The notes beneath the pieces were generated by a model, which searched no databases, was not told the origin of the DNA, and saw nothing but the letters and a program-made list of their open reading frames with translations. The position numbers were made by a program, and so were the translations under genes. Below are positions 1,592 to 33,175 of a stretch of 63,242 bases of DNA, piece by piece (position 1 is the stretch's first letter; every line of letters starts with the position of its first letter). The stretch is from a virus (lineage: Duplodnaviria > Caudoviricetes), in IMG/VR virus record IMGVR_UViG_3300032294_001820, positions 1 to 63,242 of that record; one strand, given 5' to 3'.

Positions 1592-2329
1592 TTATTGCAA
1601 AGAAGCCCTAATACGCAAATCTGGGAATGTTGCCGGAGCACCACTTGAAATACCAGAAGCACTTGCACGAATAGAAAGTCTGTAAAACTTACCGTATCCC
1701 GTACTATAACTAATACGAATTTGCTTTGAAGGTAATGATGCAAATTCATAAGGAATTGAAACAGCCCCAATTTCTGCTGTGATTTGTCTAAAAATAGCAC
1801 CAGCAGAATGCGGAATAGCAGCACCATCACTTACTAATACGGAAGCAGGAGCTAAATTATACAAGTCTTTCCAAACAGAACCATCATCACTAACCTCAAG
1901 AAGTGCTATTATTGTTCCATTGTTAGCCAAAGTTCCTCCGTTTGCAATAAGAAAATCAAAATGAACCTGTGCCCTTCCAGTTACTTCAATGCTTTGAGTA
2001 TTTACATAAGCACCTGTTGTAATAGCATTGGCACGAATCGTAGAAATCGTAGTTGGAGCTGGCGAAATTGAAGCTGAGGTAAAGATATTTTTATTGAACT
2101 CCTCCGCTAAATTGGCAAAAGTACCTGCCCAAGCAACTCCATCAATGATGAAATTAAACAATCCTGAGTTAAAAGGTAGGGTTAGTCCAATTGGAGGACA
2201 TTGCAAAATAAGCGTATCCCCACTAACACTATAATCTGCCTTAGAGGTAGATGAAGGAAAGTAGAAAATACTACTATTAAAAGTTACCTGAACATCAGGA
2301 GTGCCGGTTATTACTGTTACTGTTATCAT
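1592..2329 (-). CDS. Putative virion structural protein (fibre/decoration)
   Basis: Beta-rich 245-aa ORF in the tail cluster. Confidence 0.5.
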   Translation of the reverse strand: MITVTVITGTPDVQVTFNSSIFYFPSSTSKADYSVSGDTLILQCPPIGLTLPFNSGLFNFIIDGVAWAGTFANLAEEFNKNIFTSASISPAPTTISTIRANAITTGAYVNTQSIEVTGRAQVHFDFLIANGGTLANNGTIIALLEVSDDGSVWKDLYNLAPASVLVSDGAAIPHSAGAIFRQITAEIGAVSIPYEFASLPSKQIRISYSTGYGKFYRLSIRASASGISSGAPATFPDLRIRASLQ

Positions 2330-6006: not shown

Positions 6007-7053
6007 TTAATTTTCACTTACACCCCATATAATATCCAAAACGAAATCTTTCTTTTCTTCGCCATAAACCAACAGAAAACTAACCTTAACAGAGTTTATA
6101 CCCTTTATTTTGTTTGGAATGAAAGAAAATTTAATTGTTTTGCTGTCATATCCACCTATCTCAAATGGTTGTGCATCCGGTCTTGAAACAACAGAAATTA
6201 ATTCTCCTCCTGTAATCGTAGCACCCAAAACAGAAATAGCCCTATCGCTTACAGCATTTATCTTTATTTGTGCCGTAATGAGTTCAGGAGTATCAATTTT
6301 GCCTATTTTAAGACAATCGCCAACTAAATCAGATATTTCTTTAACAGGAGTTCTCGCTTGGCCATTTATTTTTATAGGCAAAACGGAAATGCTAAAAGGC
6401 AAATCAGAGTTATCGTACCCCTCAACTTCAATGTTTATTTTAAACTTAGAGGTAATATCTATCCCTCCAGCTCTGTAATTTACACACAAAGCAGATTTAA
6501 GTGGGTCAATCCCTGATATAATATTTACTGCAACGGTCTTTGTTACAGATTTACCTGGAGCAATTACGAATGGCTGAAAAGAGCCAAAGATAACGCAACC
6601 ATGTATATTGCAATTGAAACTAAGTGCTTGTACTTCATATTCGCCCGTATTTTTTAATTCAATATTGTGGTCAAATGCTTGACCAATTTTCAGCGTTCCA
6701 AAGTTAAGGCTTTTTTCACTTATTTCAATACCTGCCATAAACTCAATAATCTTAAACTCAACCTTTTCTACCTTGTCCCCAGATACAAAATCCACCGAAA
6801 CAAACACCTCATTCGTAGAAATATACCCTGCTTCAAAACCAATAATACATACCAACGCACCCTTCTTAAACGGAACTTCACCTATTGAAATGCCATTTTC
6901 ACTTATCCAATTGTACATCGGCAACAACTTAAAATGCTTGAAATCAGCATCTTTTACATGGATAAATACCTGCTCCTCCAAAGATTCTCGGATAACTACT
7001 ATCCTATCCTGCATTCCTGCATGAATTATATTGCTATGTGGTTTGATTGTCAT
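6007..7053 (-). CDS. Ig-like (ASH / choice-of-anchor D type) domain protein
   Basis: SLNFGTLKIGQ...IELKNTG...FVIAPGKSVT motif typical of ASH-type Ig folds. Confidence 0.55.
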   Translation of the reverse strand: MTIKPHSNIIHAGMQDRIVVIRESLEEQVFIHVKDADFKHFKLLPMYNWISENGISIGEVPFKKGALVCIIGFEAGYISTNEVFVSVDFVSGDKVEKVEFKIIEFMAGIEISEKSLNFGTLKIGQAFDHNIELKNTGEYEVQALSFNCNIHGCVIFGSFQPFVIAPGKSVTKTVAVNIISGIDPLKSALCVNYRAGGIDITSKFKINIEVEGYDNSDLPFSISVLPIKINGQARTPVKEISDLVGDCLKIGKIDTPELITAQIKINAVSDRAISVLGATITGGELISVVSRPDAQPFEIGGYDSKTIKFSFIPNKIKGINSVKVSFLLVYGEEKKDFVLDIIWGVSEN

Positions 7054-7057
7054 TGTC

Positions 7058-10000
7058 TTAATTCGTTTTAGGTTTTTGTCCGTATGCTAACTTTCTTTCC
7101 TTCCACAAAAATCTACGATTCATTAACTCCGAAGCCCCTACATCAAACTTCTCCGGTGCCCCTGCAAGGAATGTATCAAAGAAGTGGTCAATAGCAATAG
7201 GGCTAATCCTAACGCCATTCCTTTCAAGTTTTTTGCTCAGATTAACAGAATACTCAGGGGTAAATTTATTTTTAAGCAATGAAGGGCTATAAGGCTTTCC
7301 TGTTTTTGGATCAACAACCTCATTCATAATTGCATTCCTAAGCATTTTGCCTCGAATATTTTCTGGCAATAGTGGATATTTACCAAAGAAGTTTTTGTTT
7401 GCTATCCTTTCCAATGGATATTTTATCAGTGGGTTTAGTCCAGAAATAGCAGACATTCCCCTGTTAATCCACTCTTCTTCTTTTCTTTTTGTTTTTCTTT
7501 CTCCTGTTTCTGGGTCAATATCTGAAAGATAGGTTTTATCCGCAAGGTTGAAAGTCATCATTTCAGAACCGCTTGAAGTTAGCAGGTCTTTCACTATTCT
7601 CTTTATTTCTTCATCGGAAAGTTTATCCTTTATCGCCTCTCCAAATGCTTGTCCAGAAGCCCTTCCAATAGAGTTAAAAATAACAGGTAGCCCACGAATA
7701 GGGATTGTAACAAAATCTGCCTGTACGCCTTCGCCTTCAATTTCTCTTTCTATTGGAATTATCATGTTTTTCCACTTGGAGTTTTCATCCATGTCGTCAT
7801 ACATTTTCTTTTCTTCATCATCATCTGACTTTAATGCCATTGCTAATCCTGTCATAAACGCAGGAATTGTAAAAACAGCAGCGTTTCTTGCTGAGAAAAT
7901 CAAAGCATCTTTTCGTTCCTTAGCCGAAGCCCCTGCATTTACAGCATTCATCATTCTGGAAATATCAGTCATGTTCCCTTTTACCGCAGCACCAAGGAAA
8001 GGAATCATCACAGAAGCAGCCCTCATATTCGGTGGAATTTGCTCAAAGTTTGGACTGCCTATATTGTTAAGGATTTCATCGTTTATTTCCTCTATCGCAT
8101 TTTCCAACTCAGCCTGAGTTAGTCTTTTTTTGCTATGCAACTTGTCAATATAGCCACCAATATAGGTATCTAATCCACGCCTAACACCTGCCTCTGTGCC
8201 TGAAAGTTTTATATTCCCATAGATTTTATGGGAGTTTTCAAGAATCTTACTGATAGTATTGATTATATCTATTAGTCCATCAACCGTTAGCCTTGTCTTT
8301 TGCCTTGCACCAAGCATTGCCTCTGAAATTGCTTTAGCGGTTTTAGGGTTGCCAAGGATTGTTTGAGTTCTCCTTTGAACTGTTTCTAAGAATTTTGCAT
8401 CCTCGATTTCATTTTGGGTTCTACCTGATTTTAGTTTATCGGTAAAGTAGTTCATGTAAGTACCCTCTGAGTAAGAAGGAGATTTCCTCCACGCCTCATA
8501 TTCCTTAAACATAAAATCAGGAGTTATGCTTTTAAGACCTAAAGCATTTCCAAGTTTAGTGTTTAACAAATTACCAATGATACTTTCAACAAGAGCCTCT
8601 GAATATAATACAGGAACCTGAACAACAGAAGCAACTCTTTCGGTTATATTTGCTCCTGAACCAAGTCCAGCCTTTGAAGTAAGCGTACGGACGGTATCAA
8701 TAACAAAGTTTGTGGGAAGGAATGTAACACTCGCTGATGTAGCCGCTATCTTAAACCAAAATGAACCAAACTTTAGCACTTGTTCAAAAGCACTTAATTC
8801 AGGTTTGGTCATTCCATCAATAGCCTGTTTTAATTTTTCATCAACCGCAACTCTTTGCTGAACTCCATCTTTGTAGTATGTAATTATAGCCATACCGCTT
8901 GGGAGTTTTTCTCCATCCTCTAACCTCTTAAAGTAATCGTTGTTGGTATCTGCATCAATGAGCCTATCAACATCTTCCATATACCCTTGTCTTGCAACTT
9001 GATATTGAGAAGCATTAATGATATTTAATGTTTTGTTAAGCGGTGAATGCAGTTCTAATCCAGGTTCGGATAGAGAATCCATTAATTCCTCATATTCCTG
9101 CTGAGTTATATTCCCTTGATTCCTTGCATCAGTAATCTTTTCTGTTGCTAAATAGTAATATGAATCAACATCAATATCACCGTTTTGCATCATTTTGTAA
9201 AATATCTCAACAGTCTTGTCGGCATCCGCAGCATTCTTAGGTGTATCAACCCCTGTTATCTTTTTAATAACACTTTGCCCTTGGGCATTAGTCCTGTCGT
9301 ATTCCGTGCCTGTAATTACATTTCCTCTAAAATCTCTCTGTACTACATCAAATGGGATATAGAACTCATTCTGAGCCTTAATAGCATCGTACCTATCCTG
9401 TGTAAGCACTCCGGCATCAACTAAGTCTTTTAGGTTATCGTCAAAAACTTGTTGCAAATCATCCCCTGCCTGAGTGAACTTATCAAACATATCTGCACCT
9501 ATTTTGTTTCTAAGGTCATTAAGTAGAATATCAGCATTTGTTTCTGTTATTCCACCTGTTGTTCTCCTTACAGGCCTCTTCTTTAATAAACCTTGATTGT
9601 AAGCCTCTTGGTTGGCTTTGTCCTGTATAGCCCTATCAATAATCCTTCTGTATATCAAATACTTTTCAAAGTCAGGAAGATTGCTTTCAATAGGTTTTAG
9701 AATTTCTGATATTCTCTCCATGTACGGCAAAGCCAAAGACCTTGCTTTCCCACGAAGTTGTTCCATAGCCCTACCAAGTGGTAATTCCCTTGTTCTATTG
9801 TAGGATGAACCTGGAGTTGTGCCTATCATTTTTTCGACAAAATTCAACAGTTCTTTAGGGCTATCTAATTTCTGTCTTAATTCAGCAGTTTTCCTTTTTA
9901 CAGCAGTCCAAAATGGCTCACTACGAGAAATGAATGGCTTACCTTCATCCATTTTCTTTTCCATCTGTCTTGCAAGTTCCTCTTGTTCTTTTGTATAAAT

Positions 10001-13000
10001 AGGAGCCTGTGTTTTGTTTGGCTGTCCGGCAGTTCCGATTTGTCCTTTATTATTTCCCGAAGGAGAAACAACACCCTCTGCAAGTTTGCGAACACTATTG
10101 ATTATGTTTACAATATCGTCTTTATCGGGATTCAATGATGTTTGACCTGATTGTGCCAACATTTGATTAACCTCTAAGATAGCATTGTCAACTACCTTTT
10201 TTATTTGAGAGGCTACCCCTGCACTTGATAGTTTAGTTTGCTTTAACAGTATCTGTAAGTTCTTCCAAGCGATTTGAGCAAGCAATGATACCTGTTGTGG
10301 GTTAAGGTTCATTGTAGCCTTGCCCATTTCTTTTTTGAACTGCTGTATTAAAGAATCTCTTTCAGACTTTAAGGTATCAATATCAGATTTATCTAAAGCC
10401 TCCGTAAGTGCCTTATAATTCCCATCATTTAGAAGGAATGCCTTAAACTTCGCAGGGGTATCGAGGGTTATTTCTTGCCCACCGATTTTCAGGGTTTTGC
10501 CATCGTAGATTCCTGCTTTTCGGGCTCTATCTGATAAGTCTTGGCTGTTATCGAATGCCCTTTTGAGTTCCTTGTTAGTCGGCTTTGCGAGTGCGAGTTC
10601 ACGCCCTTTTTCTGGGGCTTTTTCTATTTTCTCAACTTGTGCTACATCTGTGGCGTTGATAGGGGTGATGGTGGGTTGGGGAGTGGTGGGAGATATTAAT
10701 TCTGTTATTTCTGCATCAGACAATCCAAGCGATTTCAAATCTTTTTTTGCCGATTCCATTTCTAATTCAGCATTTTTAATTTGATTCTTCCTACGCCTTT
10801 CGTTTACACTATTTACGCTAACATCCCTACCTTCTAACTCTCCACCAACTGAAACATTTAGATTTCCTGCTGATTTATATACTCTGCTTTCCCAATCTTC
10901 TTTTACTTTCTTGGCATTATTATATTGCTCTACAAGTTTCTTCTTTGCTTCTTGGTATGTTCTTGCCCACTTCTTATCGAATGAAGATTCTTGGTATCTT
11001 AATTCCCTTTCTTCATCTATGGGTAGTGGTTCAGCATTTTTAGCATCAGAAACTAATTTGTCAAAATCAACGCCTTTGGTTAATTCCTCTATATTGCTTA
11101 AATCCTCAACTACCTCCCCTTTGGCTTCCGTGGCTGTGGCTTCGCCTTTACCTTGTTGGGTAGGGCTTTCAGGTTTTGCTTGGGGTTTTCCTTCCGCCAC
11201 TTCCGGGCTAACTCCGGCTTTTGGCTGAACAGGAACTTTTGCTGTGCTTTCGATTTGAACGGCATTTTGTCCTCCTTGTGTTTTCTGTCTTTCTTTTATT
11301 TCTTTTACCTTGGCTTCTATCATTGGTCTAACACGGTCAGCATTATCTTTAGATGCCTGTGTTGCTTTATTATCCTCCATAAATCGAGGACTATTAAACC
11401 AATCTTCTGCGGCTTTTAATGTTAGTGTGTCTTCAATATTATCAGGAAGATTACCATTATCTTTAATCATAGCCATGGTATATCCTGTACGACCACCAAA
11501 TTGTTCATACCCTACTATTGCAACAACCCATGTATTATTTTTTGAATCCTTTTTTCTATATACAACAACCCCGTTATCAAACAATTTGCTTGTTTCTGTT
11601 GGCGTCCTTACATCTACTGCATTGTATGTTGATGGTTTAAACCCTCCATCCGCCTTTGCTGTTTCTATATTTTTTGCTACATCTTCTTCCACATCCGCCA
11701 AAGCCTTCGGTTGTCCCTGAACTTGTTGGGGTTGGGAGGAAGGTTTAGAGTATTTCTTTATATCGCTACTTGACAATAAAACAACCTCATTTGCAAACCT
11801 TGAACCTTTAGGGTACTTAAACGCATCAAACCCTTTTGCTTTCAATAAATCAAAAATCTTCTTGTCAATATTAGTCCATTTATCTTTTGATTTGCGTGTG
11901 TCAAATACGAAGTCAGGACTTTTAGAAATTAGGGCATCAATTTCAGTATCCCCACCTATATAGATTTTGCTTTGAGGAACTTCAATCTCTACAACTTCTT
12001 TTGCATCTTTTGAAAATACATCAGGAGTTTCAGTGTAATTACCGCCTTCTTCTTCGCTAACTATATTTTCATCAAAGAAACTAATTGGATTATCTATATC
12101 CGTTAATCCCTCCCTTGAATAATGAGTCAGTTTTACAACAGGTTCGTTTTTAATATCCTCCGCAACTACTTCCCCTTCCGCATTGGCTTGGGCTTGCCCT
12201 GTTTCTTGGGGACGCAATTGGGTACTTTCTTGCCCGACTTGACCTTGGTTCCCACCATCTCGTACCCCTTCCAACATGGGGACTTCTTGTTTGCCTGTTT
12301 CATTTTCTTGTATGGTTAGTTGTTGTTGTGCTGATTGTGGAGTTACTATAACCTCCCCTGAACTCGGTAGTACATTAACACCTCCTCGTACCCTACGGGC
12401 TTGCCTTATACTTTCCCCTTGTCCTTTCGGAGTTATCGTGGCTTGACCTTTAGGTTCTTGACCGGCAGGTAATGTCTTGACACCCTCCCTTACCGCAGGA
12501 ACCCTGTCTTGAACTGAACCTGCTTCTACTTCCTGAATGAACTTCTGACCTTCGGTATTCGCCTTGTCAATATCAGCAAGCATTCCCGACAAAATATTTA
12601 AGGTAGCACCTTTTTCAGCATCTGACAAAGCGTTGTTTCTAATTACTTTTGGGAACAACCCATTAGCCCATTGATAAGCACCATGTAACGCATCTGGACT
12701 AACCATAACCCCATCTGCAATCTTATCAAATATAGACTCCAATTCAGAAGTCATTTCATTTAGTGGATTTGTTTCAGAAGGTTTATTGTCATTGAAATAT
12801 GTTTGGGCTTCTGGAAGATTTGCAACCTCGTATGGCGAAGGTGTTACTATTGTCTGGCCAGATGAAGGAGTTCCTCCGCCTCCCATTGGAATAGCCTTTT
12901 TATCCTTTGCTGTTTGAGTTCTTTCTGGCAATAGACCTGCAACTTTAGAACCGCCCTCCGTTAAAAGTAACTGATTATCTAACGCCTGTAACTTATCCTG

Positions 13001-14578
13001 AACAAGAGTTTCAGCCTTATTAATATCCTCTAACTCCGCAATCGCCTCTTGTTGGGTTATTTCTCCATTCTGAACCTGTTGTCTTATTTTTGCTCGTTTG
13101 CCTGTTAGTGCGGTTAATACTGAACCTAAAACAAAACCTGTTGCACCTCCACCCTCTGCACTCTCATATAAACCACTTGTTAACCTTTGAGCCTCGTTAT
13201 AAGTCTGTCCTATTCCGGCATTAAGAACCAACTGCTGTAAGGTTTCCTGTATGGCTTCCTCAGCACCCTGAACACCGCCTTGCTTGAAAGCATCTATAAC
13301 AACATTCGTTACAGGTTTCCCAAGTCTTGCCATTAACCTTTCCAATGGAATAGCCTCCAAAGAACCTGCGAACAAAGCCGTAGGTATTATTGAACTTGCT
13401 ACTTCGTCCTCAGTTGTATTCCTTAATGATTCCCAAGAATTACCTGCATCTTTAGCATTTTCACCGGCTGTAACTCGTTCAAGAACATAAGCGTCCTTAT
13501 CCATTGAGTTAGCCATTTTGTGCAATTGTCGTGCAGCTTGTGTTTCTGCACCAACCATTTGAAATGCACCTGCAACAGAAGGTCTGCTAAATAATTGCTT
13601 CGCACCATTGGCTATTAATTGTCTATTAGTTAATGCCCCTCTGCCAAGTTTCATAATGCCACCTGCCGGATTTAAGCCTCCCTGAACCATTATTGAACCA
13701 ACTTGACCCAATGCCGTTGCAACCGTTCCTGTAAGTCCACCTGCGTATTCAGGGTTTCTATAAATGTCTTTTTCAGCAAAGTTTTCTAATCCCTTCCCTG
13801 CTTGATAAATCCATGAATCTTCAGGTTTAGAAAGCATTGAATAACTACCCTCTAATGGAGTTCCTTTAAGTGCATTGACAATTTTATTATCAAGACTATA
13901 TCCTAATTCAGAAATTCCCCTTAACTCACTTCCAATACCACCGATAAGTCCTGCCTCAAATTCACCAAGTTTAGTAACACCAAATTGATATGGATTAACC
14001 TCAGAACTTTGTGGAGCAGAAACGGGAATTACCGATTCTCCACTTACCCCAGTTACCTGTGGCTGAACTCCTGCCATCTGTGGCTTTTCGGAAGCAACAG
14101 GAGGCTTCGCTTCTGCACCACGAGTATCCGTAATTTGAAATTGCCCTGCACCAAGCCCTTGACCTTGTGGCATTCCTCCCTGAACCTGTCCTGCCTGTTG
14201 TTCAATCGGTGCTATTTGCGTTTCGGCAGAAGTGGCTTTTGGTTGGTTGGTTGGAACATTAGAAACAGGAGGTAATACCGGTTGACCAGAAACAGGTGTA
14301 CCCATCTTTTTTATTTCTGCAACTTCCGGTATATCTTCTGCTATTTCAGGCTGTGTCGGGAATTGACCAACTTGCAAAACAGAGTTAAATTCATTTTCGT
14401 TAGGAACCCCTTTTACAATGTTTAATTCAGCAGCAGTCTTTAGTCCACTATAAACAATTTTGGCATAATTATCATCTCGTATTTTGAGATTGAACGCCTC
14501 AAATGATGTTTCAGGCTGAACAACACCTGCCCTGACAAGTGAATCGTAATATGCTTTTTTTTTACTTTCGTCTGCCAT
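7058..14578 (-). CDS. Giant polyvalent internal virion (ejected cargo) protein with ART-like and LPD38-like regions
   Basis: 2506 aa. G/A-rich hydrophobic helices, an ART-like module near 11755-12140, and a C-terminal LNPLIKYPLERIANKNFF...ISPIAIDHFF segment resembling LPD38. Confidence 0.7.
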   Translation of the reverse strand: MADESKKKAYYDSLVRAGVVQPETSFEAFNLKIRDDNYAKIVYSGLKTAAELNIVKGVPNENEFNSVLQVGQFPTQPEIAEDIPEVAEIKKMGTPVSGQPVLPPVSNVPTNQPKATSAETQIAPIEQQAGQVQGGMPQGQGLGAGQFQITDTRGAEAKPPVASEKPQMAGVQPQVTGVSGESVIPVSAPQSSEVNPYQFGVTKLGEFEAGLIGGIGSELRGISELGYSLDNKIVNALKGTPLEGSYSMLSKPEDSWIYQAGKGLENFAEKDIYRNPEYAGGLTGTVATALGQVGSIMVQGGLNPAGGIMKLGRGALTNRQLIANGAKQLFSRPSVAGAFQMVGAETQAARQLHKMANSMDKDAYVLERVTAGENAKDAGNSWESLRNTTEDEVASSIIPTALFAGSLEAIPLERLMARLGKPVTNVVIDAFKQGGVQGAEEAIQETLQQLVLNAGIGQTYNEAQRLTSGLYESAEGGGATGFVLGSVLTALTGKRAKIRQQVQNGEITQQEAIAELEDINKAETLVQDKLQALDNQLLLTEGGSKVAGLLPERTQTAKDKKAIPMGGGGTPSSGQTIVTPSPYEVANLPEAQTYFNDNKPSETNPLNEMTSELESIFDKIADGVMVSPDALHGAYQWANGLFPKVIRNNALSDAEKGATLNILSGMLADIDKANTEGQKFIQEVEAGSVQDRVPAVREGVKTLPAGQEPKGQATITPKGQGESIRQARRVRGGVNVLPSSGEVIVTPQSAQQQLTIQENETGKQEVPMLEGVRDGGNQGQVGQESTQLRPQETGQAQANAEGEVVAEDIKNEPVVKLTHYSREGLTDIDNPISFFDENIVSEEEGGNYTETPDVFSKDAKEVVEIEVPQSKIYIGGDTEIDALISKSPDFVFDTRKSKDKWTNIDKKIFDLLKAKGFDAFKYPKGSRFANEVVLLSSSDIKKYSKPSSQPQQVQGQPKALADVEEDVAKNIETAKADGGFKPSTYNAVDVRTPTETSKLFDNGVVVYRKKDSKNNTWVVAIVGYEQFGGRTGYTMAMIKDNGNLPDNIEDTLTLKAAEDWFNSPRFMEDNKATQASKDNADRVRPMIEAKVKEIKERQKTQGGQNAVQIESTAKVPVQPKAGVSPEVAEGKPQAKPESPTQQGKGEATATEAKGEVVEDLSNIEELTKGVDFDKLVSDAKNAEPLPIDEERELRYQESSFDKKWARTYQEAKKKLVEQYNNAKKVKEDWESRVYKSAGNLNVSVGGELEGRDVSVNSVNERRRKNQIKNAELEMESAKKDLKSLGLSDAEITELISPTTPQPTITPINATDVAQVEKIEKAPEKGRELALAKPTNKELKRAFDNSQDLSDRARKAGIYDGKTLKIGGQEITLDTPAKFKAFLLNDGNYKALTEALDKSDIDTLKSERDSLIQQFKKEMGKATMNLNPQQVSLLAQIAWKNLQILLKQTKLSSAGVASQIKKVVDNAILEVNQMLAQSGQTSLNPDKDDIVNIINSVRKLAEGVVSPSGNNKGQIGTAGQPNKTQAPIYTKEQEELARQMEKKMDEGKPFISRSEPFWTAVKRKTAELRQKLDSPKELLNFVEKMIGTTPGSSYNRTRELPLGRAMEQLRGKARSLALPYMERISEILKPIESNLPDFEKYLIYRRIIDRAIQDKANQEAYNQGLLKKRPVRRTTGGITETNADILLNDLRNKIGADMFDKFTQAGDDLQQVFDDNLKDLVDAGVLTQDRYDAIKAQNEFYIPFDVVQRDFRGNVITGTEYDRTNAQGQSVIKKITGVDTPKNAADADKTVEIFYKMMQNGDIDVDSYYYLATEKITDARNQGNITQQEYEELMDSLSEPGLELHSPLNKTLNIINASQYQVARQGYMEDVDRLIDADTNNDYFKRLEDGEKLPSGMAIITYYKDGVQQRVAVDEKLKQAIDGMTKPELSAFEQVLKFGSFWFKIAATSASVTFLPTNFVIDTVRTLTSKAGLGSGANITERVASVVQVPVLYSEALVESIIGNLLNTKLGNALGLKSITPDFMFKEYEAWRKSPSYSEGTYMNYFTDKLKSGRTQNEIEDAKFLETVQRRTQTILGNPKTAKAISEAMLGARQKTRLTVDGLIDIINTISKILENSHKIYGNIKLSGTEAGVRRGLDTYIGGYIDKLHSKKRLTQAELENAIEEINDEILNNIGSPNFEQIPPNMRAASVMIPFLGAAVKGNMTDISRMMNAVNAGASAKERKDALIFSARNAAVFTIPAFMTGLAMALKSDDDEEKKMYDDMDENSKWKNMIIPIEREIEGEGVQADFVTIPIRGLPVIFNSIGRASGQAFGEAIKDKLSDEEIKRIVKDLLTSSGSEMMTFNLADKTYLSDIDPETGERKTKRKEEEWINRGMSAISGLNPLIKYPLERIANKNFFGKYPLLPENIRGKMLRNAIMNEVVDPKTGKPYSPSLLKNKFTPEYSVNLSKKLERNGVRISPIAIDHFFDTFLAGAPEKFDVGASELMNRRFLWKERKLAYGQKPKTN
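11110..11265 (-). CDS. Nested alternative-frame small basic protein (MPFKSKAQ type)
   Basis: Hand-translated MPFKSKAQQKFLFSQKPELARKWRKENPKQNLKALPNKVKAKPQPRKPKGR* (51 aa), preceded by AAGGAGGACAAA. Confidence 0.7.
   Translation of the reverse strand: MPFKSKAQQKFLFSQKPELARKWRKENPKQNLKALPNKVKAKPQPRKPKGR
12166..12303 (-). CDS. Nested alternative-frame small basic protein (PCWKGY...VPNCVP type)
   Basis: Hand-translated MKQANKKSPCWKGYEMVGTKVKSGKKVPNCVPKKQGKPKPMRKGK* (45 aa). Confidence 0.7.
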   Translation of the reverse strand: MKQANKKSPCWKGYEMVGTKVKSGKKVPNCVPKKQGKPKPMRKGK

Positions 14579-17975: not shown

Positions 17976-18677
17976 TTATATCCCTAACGGCATTCCACCA
18001 AAACCCATAATAGGGGCATTTCCAGCAGCAGTAATTTGTTCCATATTCATAGATTGTGGACCAAAAGAACTTCCGTAAATTCCCTTTGTTCCAATTTCAG
18101 CACCGGTATTAGTAGATTTCCCTCCCCCCATCTTCGCCATCCCTGCCATAATTCCCTGTGTTCCTGCACCGATATTCTTTTCACTTCTCATACTCATGGC
18201 ATCAGCAGCCTTACTTTGAACCCTCATTCTGCGGTCAGCAACGGTTTCAAGCATATCGTTAAACATAGTCCTATAACTCTGTTCCTGTGCTTGCCCCTGT
18301 GCTAAAATATTATTCAAGGCATTACCCTGAATCCTACCTAACTGAGCATATTGACCAAGATTTCCACCTCTACTTAAAGCCTTAACTCCTGCACCCTGCA
18401 TCTGTGCTAAATCACGCATTTGATTGCTAATATTAGCCCCTGTCATAGCATTATTCGCCCTACGCTGATATTCCTGCATTGCAGTAACTTGTTGAGCATC
18501 TTCCTGTGCCGGTTGCATTTTCTTAGCCTTAGCCCGTTGAATATGCCCCTGAATAAGTTGTGCCCCTCCAATTGCCATTGGTAATCCTGCACCTTGCATA
18601 CCACCTCCACCACCTTGACCCCCACTTTGACCCATCATCATTGGTAACATTTTCATTAATAACGCTGGTGCTGGCAT
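17976..18677 (-). CDS. Small internal virion (DNA ejection / pilot) protein
   Basis: 233 aa, rich in G/A/M/Q, following the tail muzzle gene as in podoviruses. Confidence 0.6.
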   Translation of the reverse strand: MPAPALLMKMLPMMMGQSGGQGGGGGMQGAGLPMAIGGAQLIQGHIQRAKAKKMQPAQEDAQQVTAMQEYQRRANNAMTGANISNQMRDLAQMQGAGVKALSRGGNLGQYAQLGRIQGNALNNILAQGQAQEQSYRTMFNDMLETVADRRMRVQSKAADAMSMRSEKNIGAGTQGIMAGMAKMGGGKSTNTGAEIGTKGIYGSSFGPQSMNMEQITAAGNAPIMGFGGMPLGI

Positions 18678-23372: not shown

Positions 23373-24137
23373 TTAATACTTTGAGGTTTCGTTGTTTAAA
23401 TTAAACTCATTACGCTTCCATGTTCCCATTCTGACAAGAAACACTTTAGCCCTTGCTAATGCCCCTTCTCTTGGGTCATCGAGGTCGCCTACTATCGTTT
23501 GGTAGATAGTCCGGTACTTCTTTTCATCCCTCGCCAATAATGCCTTACAGACACGCTTTGCAGTCATTAAAGTAATGCACTCCCTAACTACTCTCGGAAT
23601 CTCAATGGTAGAACCTATCTCACCTCCAAGGCTATTATAAACCAACCTCAAATACTTGAACTCCAAAGAAGGACTACTAAGCATTATCAGTCTATTCTCA
23701 ATATTGGCAAAGTAAGTAGTGAACCCCGTACTCTGAATATCGAACCCCTGACCACCTGCATTGTAGTAGTAATCCTGTGCCTGATTGTCTTTTATTAAAG
23801 CCGTATATCCAGGACCACCTTGGCTATTGTTATACAACCTCTTCCAATGCACAACAGCCATTTCGCTTCCAGGTTGACAACATACGCCATTATGCAAATA
23901 CATTTCACGAATATTGAAACTATCAGAAGGCATATCCAAAGTAAACCTACCGGGAACCAAGGGAATATCCTTAGTAAGAATAGTCATAAACGATTGCAAA
24001 TTCAAATCCTCATAAGACCTTTGAACACTATTCATATAGTACCCACGACTTAATCCCCTCTGTAAATCTGCATCATCAAGCATCATACTTACCTCTGAAA
24101 TAATATCGTCAGCAGTAATTCTATCGCTCCATTCCAT
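23373..24137 (-). CDS. Ring / head-tail adaptor-like protein
   Basis: Helix, LDMPSD beta segment, then IPRVVRECI helix, typical of podovirus adaptor rings. Confidence 0.6.
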   Translation of the reverse strand: MEWSDRITADDIISEVSMMLDDADLQRGLSRGYYMNSVQRSYEDLNLQSFMTILTKDIPLVPGRFTLDMPSDSFNIREMYLHNGVCCQPGSEMAVVHWKRLYNNSQGGPGYTALIKDNQAQDYYYNAGGQGFDIQSTGFTTYFANIENRLIMLSSPSLEFKYLRLVYNSLGGEIGSTIEIPRVVRECITLMTAKRVCKALLARDEKKYRTIYQTIVGDLDDPREGALARAKVFLVRMGTWKRNEFNLNNETSKY

Positions 24138-30913: not shown

Positions 30914-33175
30914 TTACATTACTTGATTACTTTGTTGCCTCGGTTGTTGCCGACTTGCCATTTGAGCCTCTGACTTCATCATTGTTTCCAATAACTTAGC
31001 ATCCCTATTCTCAGCCATATTCGCATCAGCCCGTTCCATTTGCTCTAATTGTAGCATCTGATTCGCTATCTGCTGCTCCTGTGCCTGTGCCTCCATAGCC
31101 TGTCCTTGTGCTGCCATTGCCTCCTCTTGTTGACGCAGAATCTCCTGTTTCATTTTCAGATACCTGCGACTTGCACTATAAACCTCAGCCGGAGTACACA
31201 AATTAAGTACCTTGCTAAGAGTATTCTCGTCAAGCATACCCATTTGTAACAACTGCATCGCAACAACATTACCTTGGTTAATCAACTCCTTCTCGGGTTC
31301 GCTACGCTGTAAACTAATGCGGAAATCAGCCAATAGGTCATCAGCCGTAAAACTTATTCTCTCAGCACCTTCATCCCCAACAGCATTTATCAAAGTGTGT
31401 GGACTATCAGCATATATCTTCCTACCCCTGTTAGCAATACTCTGATACATTTGCTTCATGCAATCAGCCAAACTAAAGTAGAAATCCTCCTGAATAAGTG
31501 TTCCTCTGTTAATCATTGCCTGATTATTTCTAACCAATTCTAAACTACCGGTTCCAAGCATTTGCTCGTTTACACCCGTAATTGCCAATGCCGCACTTTT
31601 TACCTGACCAATCGCTGCACTTAAATACTCAAACCCATCAAGCCTTGTTCCAGGTATATTCGCAACAGCATTATTCAACCCAAATTTGCCATTTACCAAT
31701 ACAGGGTCGCCATTACGGATATTCCTTCTAAGCCCTTCTTCACCTTCCTCCTCGTCAATAATACCTCTGTCAATTAATGTAACAGGTGGAACTGCCCTAT
31801 TAACTTGATGCTCCTGTGCTGACCAAAAACGGTTAATCATTCGCTGTGGGTCAATCATAGAATCCAACGGACTAACCACCATTCCATTCCAATACTCAAA
31901 GGTCTGGACGCTATATGGGAATTTTGCACTGCTTGGATCTAAACTCGTTGTTTCCTGATAAGGCATAATTCCTGACTCCAAAACAATTGGAGCCATATCA
32001 TCGTCTTCGCCAAATGCACTGCTTGAAATATCGTACACAAATACACAATACCGAACTACATCAGCATTGAATTTCCGCTTCTTTTTGTTCTTACGATTCT
32101 TTCCTGAACCCTGTCCAAGAATCTTTTTATACTTTTCGTCTGTGGCAACAATGAGGTCTTTGTCTTCGTACTTCCCACCTTCGTAGTTAATACGCACAAA
32201 TAACTCATTCTCCATTTCATCGCTAACTACTCCGTATTCGTGTTCCTCAATATCACGCCAAAAAGCATAATAGGTACTTACCCTGCCTGTTTGGTCGCCT
32301 GTCCATAAACCATTGTCAAATTGGTCGCCATTGTTCTGATAACTTGCAATCTTCTCGATTTCCTCCCTTTGGAGTAAGGTCAAATCAGGGTACTTCTCAT
32401 ATATGTAGGTAGGGTCTAAAAACGCTTTATGGCCCATATACATAGAATCGCTTAGGTCATCTTTTTGGGCACTTACATCCCAAAAGAAATACCGGCTATC
32501 TAAACCCTCAAATACTTGGTGTCCGAAATGTTCCTTGTTAAATGCAACACATAGCCCCGAAGCACATAATTGCTTAGTAAGCCACTTCTTTAATTTTCCG
32601 TTTAAATCATTCCTGTCAGCAACAACCTTAATCAAGTTGTTTACATCACGAGTAAGGGTATCGAAATAATAACCATCAAATAGTCTTTCAGCATCTTCTG
32701 GTCCTTCTCCAATCGGGAATTGGTCTTGAAGAATATCCTTGAACATACCTCCCATTTCCTGAGCAATTTGGGAAATAATCATCATTTTGCTCATTTCTTC
32801 ATCTCGTTTCTGCTGAATACTCTCGCTTAGGGGTTCTGCCCTGTATTCGAAACTTGTCCTAATAGCATTACCTACATACTGACGAAGTACAGGTGCCATA
32901 ATATTATCTTGCCACCGAACCCTGCCATTAGGCTGTCCACTTTCGTCATTAAGGAATGTATCAATATCTTCATCCAACATCCACTGCCACTTCATTTGGT
33001 AGTTCGATAAAAGGAACATCCAATTGGTATCAGTTTTTGTTCTAAAAAAAGTTAGCCTCCAATCAAAGATTCTGCTAACAATATAGTTTGCCCAAGCTAA
33101 ATCATAATCCTCACCTTTCTTGCCGTCAATACCGGTAATCCTATTCGGTCTTATAGATGTAGTTGAGTATTCCAT
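30914..33175 (-). CDS. Portal protein
   Basis: 753 aa; DSMIDPQRMINR and AITGVNEQMLG motifs plus a Q-rich C-terminal barrel, typical of P22/crAss-type portals. Confidence 0.85.
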   Translation of the reverse strand: MEYSTTSIRPNRITGIDGKKGEDYDLAWANYIVSRIFDWRLTFFRTKTDTNWMFLLSNYQMKWQWMLDEDIDTFLNDESGQPNGRVRWQDNIMAPVLRQYVGNAIRTSFEYRAEPLSESIQQKRDEEMSKMMIISQIAQEMGGMFKDILQDQFPIGEGPEDAERLFDGYYFDTLTRDVNNLIKVVADRNDLNGKLKKWLTKQLCASGLCVAFNKEHFGHQVFEGLDSRYFFWDVSAQKDDLSDSMYMGHKAFLDPTYIYEKYPDLTLLQREEIEKIASYQNNGDQFDNGLWTGDQTGRVSTYYAFWRDIEEHEYGVVSDEMENELFVRINYEGGKYEDKDLIVATDEKYKKILGQGSGKNRKNKKKRKFNADVVRYCVFVYDISSSAFGEDDDMAPIVLESGIMPYQETTSLDPSSAKFPYSVQTFEYWNGMVVSPLDSMIDPQRMINRFWSAQEHQVNRAVPPVTLIDRGIIDEEEGEEGLRRNIRNGDPVLVNGKFGLNNAVANIPGTRLDGFEYLSAAIGQVKSAALAITGVNEQMLGTGSLELVRNNQAMINRGTLIQEDFYFSLADCMKQMYQSIANRGRKIYADSPHTLINAVGDEGAERISFTADDLLADFRISLQRSEPEKELINQGNVVAMQLLQMGMLDENTLSKVLNLCTPAEVYSASRRYLKMKQEILRQQEEAMAAQGQAMEAQAQEQQIANQMLQLEQMERADANMAENRDAKLLETMMKSEAQMASRQQPRQQSNQVM

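Follow-up and report, generated by a model that had tools for sequence, protein, structure and literature searches.

A small basic-protein gene that appears to be embedded, out of frame, in the linker of a giant polyvalent-type phage gene

The question raised by this locus is whether a short open reading frame lying out of frame within the linker of a giant phage gene is a gene in its own right or a by-product of the long reading that surrounds it. The window, by which the whole 63,242-nucleotide stretch of Caudoviricetes DNA analysed here is meant, was described in the initial annotation as carrying an MPFKSKAQ-type ORF inside this linker, and such an ORF was indeed found, intact and wholly contained in the host ORF, in the +1 frame relative to it (14578-11265 = 3313 = 3k+1). 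The features concerned are the following.

7058..14578, minus strand (-): host gene, a giant ORF of 2,506 codons (2,506 aa) of the polyvalent-protein type
11107..11266, minus strand (-): host-frame linker over nested gene A, acidic and rich in Q, E, P, V and A, reading NAVQIESTAKVPVQPKAGVSPEVAEGKPQAKPESPTQQGKGEATATEAKGEVV, pI 5.2
11110..11265, stop included, minus strand (-): nested gene A, 51 aa, host +1 frame, MPFKSKAQ family
11266..11295, minus strand (-): leader (start region) of nested gene A, rich in A and weakly structured

The host gene is giant and multi-domain, carries an LPD domain and sits in the phage late region, as expected of a polyvalent-protein gene. In the window it is found downstream of the portal (30914..33175) and other large late genes, and the Pfam domain LPD38 was detected at residues 2259-2474 of its product (E 5.2e-6), the score of 27.1 bits being barely above the cut-off of 27. 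Polyvalent-type domains (LPD23, ddrB-ParB, or Kinase-PolyVal) were likewise found in 3 of 19 scanned host ORFs of relatives. With most relatives, this linker is the sole part that the host protein of the window shares. Around nested gene A, the host frame reads ...GGQNAVQIESTAKVPVQPK...EAKGEVVEDL, while the nested frame is translated as MPFKSKAQQKFLFSQKPELARKWRKENPKQNLKALPNKVKAKPQPRKPKGR*, a protein with a pI of 11.7 and a net charge of +14.5. It is predicted to fold as a hairpin of helices, at residues 6-15 and 17-26, with a basic tail behind it (mean pLDDT 84), and no hydrophobic or lipoprotein signal was evident when the sequence was judged by eye.

Could an ORF of this size have arisen by chance, without any function? 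Its length alone would allow it. The initial annotation had proposed counting alternative-frame ORFs against shuffled controls, and this count gave no enrichment: three +1-frame ATG-initiated ORFs of at least 45 aa were observed in the host gene against a mean of 1.69 in 1,000 synonymous-codon shuffles (P(≥3) = 0.22), in which the longest +1 ORF averaged 60.5 aa. Such ORFs are also common elsewhere, as 471 +1-frame ORFs of at least 30 aa were counted in the 75 giant genes examined. The count is therefore rejected as a criterion, for it is in homology and conservation, and not in length, that nested gene A exceeds chance. The family match (best E 4.6e-13), the conservation, and the frame-specific selection described below leave a functionless chance ORF as the least probable of the explanations weighed here.

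As to homology, 24 small proteins match the nested gene A peptide at up to the E value just given, and a profile search returned 3,559 family representatives at E ≤ 1e-3, with 498 at E ≤ 1e-10. Among the best 150 of these 3,559 representatives, 120 start with MPF at residue 1, and 96 are no longer than 90 aa. Relatives of the peptide are encoded on at least 407 viral contigs. Of 25 aligned family members, 22 match PHROG 1375 (phrog_1375) at E ≤ 0.01, the best of them at 2.1e-7; the stand-alone member of locus L077 matches at 7.7e-7, and the peptide of nested gene A itself gives a weak match (E 0.014). The statement in the initial annotation that MPFKS.AQ denotes a common small phage protein was thus well founded. 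Pfam and NCBIfam gave no match for the nested peptides, nor did the A3 profile against PDB sequences (0 matches). A Foldseek search of the predicted structure against the PDB retrieved nothing meaningful (best E 9.3), and its BFVD matches were all small phage proteins that are uncharacterised. At the nucleotide level, blastn of the 2 kb around nested gene A against GenBank phages produced no match, and neither did tblastn of the L077 stand-alone member against phages. One lead from an Atlas search (0.85), a small viral protein cluster of which 15% carry Pfam DUF3008 (PF11450), was rejected as an identity, the DUF3008 HMM matching 0/25 and 0/88 sequences at E ≤ 1.

Two sets of loci were used to examine how the gene is kept. 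The peptide-selected set comprises 81 loci, namely 80 of the at least 407 viral contigs plus the Flavobacterium phage elemo record, and the host-selected set comprises 49 loci picked solely via the upstream host domain, using an alignment of eight sequences. The +1 nesting is intact in 74 of the 81 peptide-selected loci, where the surrounding ORFs range in length from 387 to over 3,700 aa; the start codon is ATG in all 81. The remaining seven loci carry stand-alone, tightly packed homologue genes, which are also found in actinophages. In the host-selected set, 42 of the 49 have an intact +1 ORF, its first Met aligned with profile position 1; in another six, a search over 3 kb finds no copy (one of the six is too short to tell), and in one the copy is truncated, so that nested gene A is not universal.

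The distribution of variation within these copies is uneven in a telling manner. Entropy at nested codon positions 1, 2, and 3 is 0.51, 0.30, and 0.95 across 69 unique peptide-selected sequences, and 0.37, 0.22, and 0.80 or 0.46, 0.26, and 0.70 in the host-selected sets, while the upstream host sequence (1.54, 1.12, and 1.68) follows the normal host-frame pattern. Pairwise protein identity amounts to 0.79-0.81 in the nested frame versus 0.51-0.56 in the host-frame linker. This pattern, which the host frame does not explain, points to purifying selection on nested gene A in its own frame. Read in the host frame, these bases give an acidic linker of low conservation, which would only need to remain open and non-basic; lysine codons in nested ORFs are 76% AAG, whereby a G falls at host codon position 1. 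One stretch of DNA therefore appears to code for two proteins.

How the nested frame might be entered was approached through its start region. The initial annotation had stressed that the ORF possesses its own AGGAGG, and the motif is present in the window, as AAGGAGG at 11277..11271, five bases ahead of the nested gene A ATG. Among relatives it is not conserved, with SD-like motifs preceding 9 of 68 unique nested starts versus 13% of control ATGs, and only 5 of the 49 genes in the window. Lacking any enrichment over control ATGs, the Shine-Dalgarno sequence was rejected as the nested start signal. What seems to be conserved instead is an A-rich, unstructured leader that resembles true starts. 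In the window, A accounts for 60% of positions -20..-1 and the folding energy over -30..+33 is -2.9 kcal/mol; among 96 further +1-frame ATGs of the host gene, just 2 are as free of structure. The leaders of 68 unique relatives average 58% A versus 36% in controls and -3.05 versus -9.0 kcal/mol, although the loci are mutually related and the P values of this comparison are inflated as a result. Ribosomes would most likely initiate independently at the nested ATG, the context of which is the start type of hosts that largely ignore Shine-Dalgarno sequences. The hosts of these phages are probably Bacteroidota, given the Flavobacterium phages among the relatives and a genome poor in SD motifs.

An entry other than initiation also deserves consideration. 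Ribosomes translating the giant ORF could shift +1 near the ATG, giving an N-terminal half with a basic tail, or ribosomes that started at the nested ATG could slip -1 on the lysine tail, giving a C-terminal half headed by MPFKSK. One database protein, P0058 (1,075 aa), does have an N-terminal polyvalent part and, joined to it in frame, the peptide as the C-terminal end, which means that a fused form may exist or that the contig carries an indel; its locus was sought in viral contigs and none was found. Moreover, 54 of the best 150 of the 3,559 representatives are longer than 90 aa with the domain mostly N-terminal, and an in-phase X XXY YYZ heptamer occurs in 31 of 95 unique nested ORFs. Against these stand the ATG retained in every peptide-selected locus and the variable bases upstream of it, which provide no conserved shift site. 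Of those 95 ORFs, 64 lack the heptamer and 79 lack AAAAAA, and the prevailing AAG lysine codon is not slippery. The family domain begins at residue 1 in nearly all members, and a search for longer close relatives of nested gene A found none. In the nested frame, a stop is found 0-24 codons ahead of the ATG, the distance being 0-1 codon in several loci. A programmed ribosomal frameshift site was rejected, there being no conserved sequence upstream of the ATG and the heptamer being restricted to the 31 ORFs mentioned; recoding in general is regarded as improbable.

The initial annotation had further drawn attention to a second nested ORF and to the ending common to both, from which a general architecture was proposed. 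The features that bear on this are given below.

12166..12303, minus strand (-): nested gene B, 45 aa, host +1 frame, PCWKGYEMVG..K..GKKVPNCVP family
11103..11155, minus strand (-): repeat copy 1, running from the gene A tail over its stop into the opening codons of the host module that follows (the 'GEVV' junction)
12159..12208, minus strand (-): repeat copy 2, comprising the gene B tail, its stop and the junction

Nested gene B, of the CWKGY type, is real and belongs to a widespread family that is seldom nested. Its leader contains 60% A and 5% G with an energy of -2.4 kcal/mol. It is absent from the 81 other loci, and an alignment-based search found the family nested in just 2 of 70 occurrences, the only other nested instances being those of loci L155 and L159, which are identical across the compared stretch. 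The common ending itself was readily verified (AAG GGG AGG TAG TTG and AAG GGG AAG TAG TTG), and it belongs to an in-phase repeat of about 50 nt: local alignment of the two copies scores 31, against a codon-shuffled mean of 15.4 (P = 0.0005), the value of 31 being reached by none of 714 other host windows (maximum 21). The reading of GEVV as a special signal did not hold. Across 96 unique nested ORFs, EEVV, EEVT, EEVD, and EEVA are the most frequent junctions, and E-V appears there because a Lys or Arg codon followed by TAG or TAA reads so in the host frame; GEVV is mostly a Lys/Arg tail plus TAG seen from the host frame, together with the repeat. Similarly, the proposal that polyvalent proteins are built from units of a nested basic gene plus an effector domain survives in part. 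The A and B families are real and A is kept nested, but a general unit of this kind was not apparent, since only one nested family is common to the 75 giant genes, a second broadly shared one was not found among them, and B is nested as rarely as stated above. Altogether, three families were observed nested, namely the MPFKSKAQ, CWKGY, and MQK.SKLMGKSP types.

The surroundings of nested gene A are as variable as the gene is constant. For most locus pairs it is the sole stretch that can be aligned by blastn; of the 2,593 pairs that blastn matches over nested gene A, 2,199 have an alignment stopping under 30 nt ahead of the ATG, and in 2,478 the alignment is over before the nested stop or at most 10 nt past it. 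Locus L082 is 87% identical to the window in the C-terminal part, yet the modules differ on both sides of the nested gene, and in four other metagenome runs, pieces of contig break off or jump at positions 11104-11110 and 12166-12167, adjoining the two nested stops. The conserved island thus appears to mark the boundaries of shuffled modules as well. These same observations, i.e., the sharp halt of similarity at the ORF ends, the differing flanking modules even among close relatives, the contig breaks beside both nested stops, and the repeat common to both tails, could be taken to mean that the sequence acts at the DNA or RNA level, as a homology patch for module swapping or a regulatory element, the ORF being an untranslated relic of a swallowed gene. 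Such a role would not pile variation onto the third positions of one frame, would not preserve the ATG and stop in 74 of 81 and 42 of 49 loci, and would not create a start-like leader. It is, besides, compatible with coding and differs only in excluding translation, and in that exclusive form it is judged improbable, marginally less likely than recoding.

Taken together, 11110..11265 on the minus strand is best explained as a genuine embedded gene that is most likely translated, a reading to which a probability of about 0.8 is assigned. The small gene would be the older reading, because its family is far wider than the giant genes, and the linker a later out-of-frame reading of it, the small gene having been 'swallowed'. 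With regard to function, the predicted product is a nucleic-acid-binding peptide, made late along with the giant protein and either associated with the virion or co-ejected; this is tentative and put at clearly less than even odds. The late, virion-linked part of this prediction derives from the position of the giant gene downstream of the portal and from stand-alone copies, some of which lie between adaptor and head-closure genes and others near terminase genes. Some longer family members bear Gly/Ala-rich hydrophobic tails and one stand-alone homologue is flanked by a peptidase gene and a holin gene, both of which weaken the functional guess; the tails would fit a membrane role instead.

Embedded phage genes of which both products are made are represented by Rz1 within Rz of phage lambda and by genes B, K, and E of phiX174. 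The present case resembles them in being a complete small gene, probably with a start of its own, on the same strand and in another frame (Rz1 is also +1). It differs in that the nesting is here in a linker, that of a giant polyvalent-type protein of many modules, the nested product is predicted to be soluble and very basic, and the embedded reading appears to predate that of the host frame; a functional pairing with the host protein is not part of the likeness. PHROG 1375 is a family without known function, and nesting is absent from its description. The likeness to the polyvalent proteins of Iyer et al. (2017, PMC5512222) lies in a giant multi-domain late protein with LPD38, and in the LPD23, ddrB-ParB, or Kinase-PolyVal domains of relatives; linker-embedded genes are not described in the passages of that paper covered here, and in its text 'overlapping' and 'frameshift' occurred 0 times and 'nested' twice, both times about a protein fold. 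In the portion of the literature covered on polyvalent proteins, overlapping or embedded phage genes, and Elemovirus, no description of nested gene A was found.

Several implications follow for these phages and their annotation. A gene nested in 74 of 81 loci is left out of the annotation deposited for the one cultured relative checked, the elemo record listing no nested CDS in the stretch around its 3,694-aa 'structural protein', although its nested ORF is located at 8001..8129 of locus L001. ORF-length statistics would dismiss a real gene of this kind, whereas homology combined with frame-specific variation can recover it. The locus suggests an evolutionary route by which a multi-domain protein acquires a linker as the out-of-frame reading of an older gene, and the nested gene offers a possible anchor for module shuffling. 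That polyvalent linkers more generally can be older small genes, swallowed at gene fusion and still alive while embedded, and may serve as homology patches for the exchange of effector modules, is a more doubtful extension; the patch role is conceivable because the nested genes are the only conserved DNA in hypervariable giant genes. The existence of a cultured relative, Flavobacterium phage elemo, and of its non-pathogenic environmental host strain BAL314 makes the embedded gene testable.

The nested reading frame of MPFKSKAQ type reported in the initial annotation, here termed ORF A, is borne out by the window: the peptide is exactly as first written, and both its frame and the GEVV ending can be read. 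It lies wholly within a host ORF of polyvalent type, off by one base from the host phase (+1), and its DNA, when read in the host frame, encodes a linker rich in Q, E, P, V and A that terminates in GEVV. A second nested ORF of CWKGY type, ORF B, shares with it the 3′ end AAG GGG A(G/A)G TAG TTG. The features of this 63,242-base virus record, estimated to be 90% complete, are as follows.

7058..14578, (-) strand: host ORF, 2,506 aa, containing all of ORF A
11110..11265, (-) strand: ORF A, ATG to TAG, 51 codons
11277..11271, (-) strand: AAGGAGG near the ORF A start
12166..12303, (-) strand: ORF B, second +1 ORF, 45 aa
11103..11155, (-) strand: tail repeat, copy 1, in the ORF A tail
12159..12208, (-) strand: tail repeat, copy 2, in the ORF B tail

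The length of ORF A is no evidence for a gene. Three +1 ATG-ORFs of at least 45 aa were observed in the host gene against a mean of 1.69 in 1,000 shuffles holding the host protein and codon set constant (P of 3 or more = 0.22), and the enrichment over shuffled controls by which the nested ORFs had been proposed to be judged is thus absent. Because the shuffles match the observed counts (their longest +1 ORF averaging 60.5 aa), that control on its own would have told against ORF A. The 75 related giant genes contain 471 +1 ORFs of at least 30 aa, and 15 in the +2 frame. A 61-aa +1 ORF at 13423..13608 (-), longer than both ORF A and ORF B and not basic, falls in none of the twelve largest alternative-frame ORF clusters listed for the 75 giant genes; it probably arose by chance and exemplifies how uninformative length is.

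We regard ORF A as a real gene, with a probability of about 0.8. A tblastn search with its peptide matched 68 Flavobacterium ‘elemo’ phage records; in the one examined, the +1 host of the peptide ORF is the gene for a 3,694-aa ‘structural protein’, annotated without any nested CDS. Scanning viral contigs for the peptide yielded at least 407 confirmed loci. Among the 81 relatives' loci selected by the peptide (L001-L081), 74 copies are nested in +1 of ORFs whose lengths run from 387 to over 3,700 aa, seven stand alone, and all 81 start with ATG. A second set, chosen via a host-frame domain of about 330 aa lying 5′ of the nested gene, avoids peptide-based choice: an intact +1 ORF with its Met aligned to profile position 1 was present in 42 of the 49 host-selected loci and a truncated copy in one, and six held no copy within 3 kb, one of these being too short to tell. 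Some 400 nt 5′ of its intact copy, L001, an elemo phage record, has a 10-codon remnant starting with MPFKSK (7605..7637) that resembles a degenerated duplicate.

The purifying pattern belongs to the nested frame. Among 69 unique sequences compared over 37 ungapped codons, nested codon positions 1, 2 and 3 had entropies of 0.51, 0.30 and 0.95, so that the most variable base is the first codon position of the host; pairwise identity averaged 0.77 at the DNA level, 0.79 in the nested protein and 0.51 in the host frame. The host-selected set gave 0.37/0.22/0.80, with identities of 0.81 nested versus 0.56 in the host frame (24 unique sequences), and immediately 5′ of the nested gene the host frame displays a normal pattern with much greater variation (1.54/1.12/1.68). 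A two-cysteine subtype of the nested protein (e.g. MPFKNKQQMKACYS.NNPKWDCKKW...; L167, L174, L175, L178, L181, L204, L207, L210-L212 and L001) is also +1 nested under the same frame-specific selection (eight unique host-selected sequences: 0.46/0.26/0.70; 0.77 nested versus 0.55). The host frame is not wholly free: AAG accounts for 76% of Lys codons in nested ORFs, 48% in stand-alone copies (six unique) and 33% in the host gene of the window, a bias reflecting dual-coding constraint, as it is because nested Lys codons are mostly AAG that the linker stays acidic rather than basic.

Compared with the host ORFs of 75 relatives, the host protein of the window shares essentially only residues ~1050-1200 with 43 of them; its only close relative, L082 (87% identity over residues 1303-2504, 60% over 1-196), has modules flanking its nested copy that are unrelated on both sides. 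A blastn match crossed the nested gene in 2,593 of 4,095 locus pairs, reaching fewer than 30 nt beyond the ATG on its 5′ side in 2,199 of these and stopping, at the other end, before the stop codon or at most 10 nt beyond it in 2,478. A 3-kb stretch matches contigs of four other metagenome runs patchily (four studies, 85% likeness); pieces or loose ends terminate at 11104-11110 and 12166-12167, adjoining both nested stop codons, and one joint links 12159 to 11104, although these contigs, which come from relatives and have short sides, count as supportive only. In most relatives a conserved Gly/Ala-rich domain directly adjoins the nested gene on its 5′ side (330 aa in L007 and others); in the window it occupies host residues ~200-560, about 550 residues further upstream, with additional modules and ORF B inserted between it and ORF A.

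The AGGAGG that the initial annotation assigned to ORF A is present but incidental, since SD-like motifs are rare in the window (5 of 49 genes) and not enriched at nested starts (9 of 68 unique starts versus 13% of other +1 ATGs). Three of those five genes have strong motifs (1592..2329, 17976..18677 and 23373..24137). The conserved start feature appears to be an A-rich leader with weak predicted structure: the 68 unique nested leaders contain 58% A (controls 36%) and 10% G (controls 22%), with predicted structures of -3.05 versus -9.0 kcal/mol (nominal P 2e-31, inflated by relatedness of the loci). Both window leaders are 60% A (ORF A, -2.9; ORF B, -2.4 kcal/mol) and have weaker predicted structure than true gene starts there show on average (43% A, -5.0 kcal/mol). 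Of the 96 internal +1 ATGs, no more than 2 are as open as the ORF A start. A-rich, unstructured starts are typical of Bacteroidota, and such a start fits the Flavobacterium hosts of cultured relatives. Synthesis of the nested-frame product by frameshifting is unlikely, given nested-frame stops 0-24 codons upstream of the ATG, the lack of conserved sequence there and the missing slippery heptamer in 64 of 95 nested ORFs. In one database protein, P0058 (1,075 aa), the MPFKSK peptide forms the C-terminus, in frame with an N-terminal polyvalent part; its DNA locus was not found in viral contigs, and the fusion is either genuine, as a split or fused form, or the product of an indel within the A-run preceding the ATG.

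The ORF A peptide matches 24 small proteins of 41-68 aa (best E 4.6e-13, 92% identity), in which M1, P2, F3, S5, Q8, P17, A20 and P36 are invariant. A profile of this family picked out, from 1.84 billion, 3,559 representatives at E<=1e-3, of which 498 reached E<=1e-10; in the best 150 matches, 120 had MPF at residue 1, 96 were of 90 aa or less and 54 were longer. With phrog_1375 (function unknown) matched by 22 of 25 members, albeit weakly by the window peptide (E 0.014), the earlier description as a common small phage protein proved sound. Searches of Pfam, NCBIfam and PDB sequences with the family gave zero matches, and identity with DUF3008, a lead from Atlas, was rejected (0 of 88 members). 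An AlphaFold2 model from 88 sequences (mean pLDDT 84) predicts a pair of short helices, at residues 6-15 and 17-26, and an extended, basic tail, and resembles uncharacterised small phage proteins only. Because the family, found in actinobacterial and many uncultured phages, ranges far more widely than the giant genes hosting it, the small gene is most likely older and the linker would be a newer reading of its DNA.

The ORF A product has a pI of 11.7 and a charge of +14.5, and its host gene belongs to the late block, downstream of portal, the only one of 20 large late window proteins with a PHROG match. Stand-alone copies occur in the following settings.

L077: between head-tail adaptor and head-closure genes
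L068: terminase and portal follow a few genes downstream
L074: downstream of terminase
Gordonia phage: between small and large terminase genes

One stand-alone copy is flanked by peptidase and holin genes. In L068, a 48-aa basic gene (MKAKLPGLWENIRAKRARGEKP...; 6122..6268) adjoins the stand-alone MPFKSK gene; as both it and ORF B match phrog_28131, such mini-proteins tend to travel together. We tentatively suggest that the ORF A product might be a late nucleic-acid-binding peptide that is packaged or ejected along with the giant protein and the DNA. A membrane-linked role is also conceivable, as some longer family members have Gly/Ala-rich tails.

The GEVV junction, put forward as a special feature, is largely a by-product, since the host frame turns a Lys or Arg codon and the TAG or TAA after it into E-V: stops in 96 unique nested ORFs are TAG in 49, TAA in 47 and TGA in none, and EEVV (9), EEVT (8), EEVD (6) and EEVA (6) are the commonest residues over them. 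The ORF A and ORF B tails align over 53 columns with a score of 31 (codon-shuffled mean 15.4, P = 0.0005; reached in 0 of 714 other host windows), best read as a local in-phase repeat from duplication or recombination between both linkers. ORF B was rightly singled out: homology shows that it truly belongs to a family under strong conservation (PCWKGYEMVG..K..GKKVPNCVP), with 29 homologues and 322 phage records. Of 70 occurrences, 58 are in frame within larger proteins, 10 are small stand-alone genes and two are +1-nested in a giant ORF, namely in L155 and L159, whose sequences agree fully across the compared stretch and represent one phage. ORF B differs from L155 mostly at third positions (4/5/12 by nested codon position); none of the other 81 loci with ORF A contains it, nor does L082. 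A third basic +1 ORF of 40 aa (MQK.SKLMGKSP... type; L001 6987..7109 and L033 4078..4200, differing 4/1/11) may be another embedded gene family. The MPFKSK cluster is the only nested cluster shared among the 75 giant genes. The mechanistic generalisation that polyvalent proteins are built from units of nested gene plus effector is hence only partly supported: nested small genes recur in linkers, and a regular unit was not seen in those 75 genes.

Embedded phage genes are already known as a kind; the portions of literature retrieved on embedded or overlapping phage genes, polyvalent proteins and Elemovirus described neither the ORF A family nor its giant-gene setting nor the apparent direction of overprinting. 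That direction appears to have been the small gene first and the host-frame linker later.
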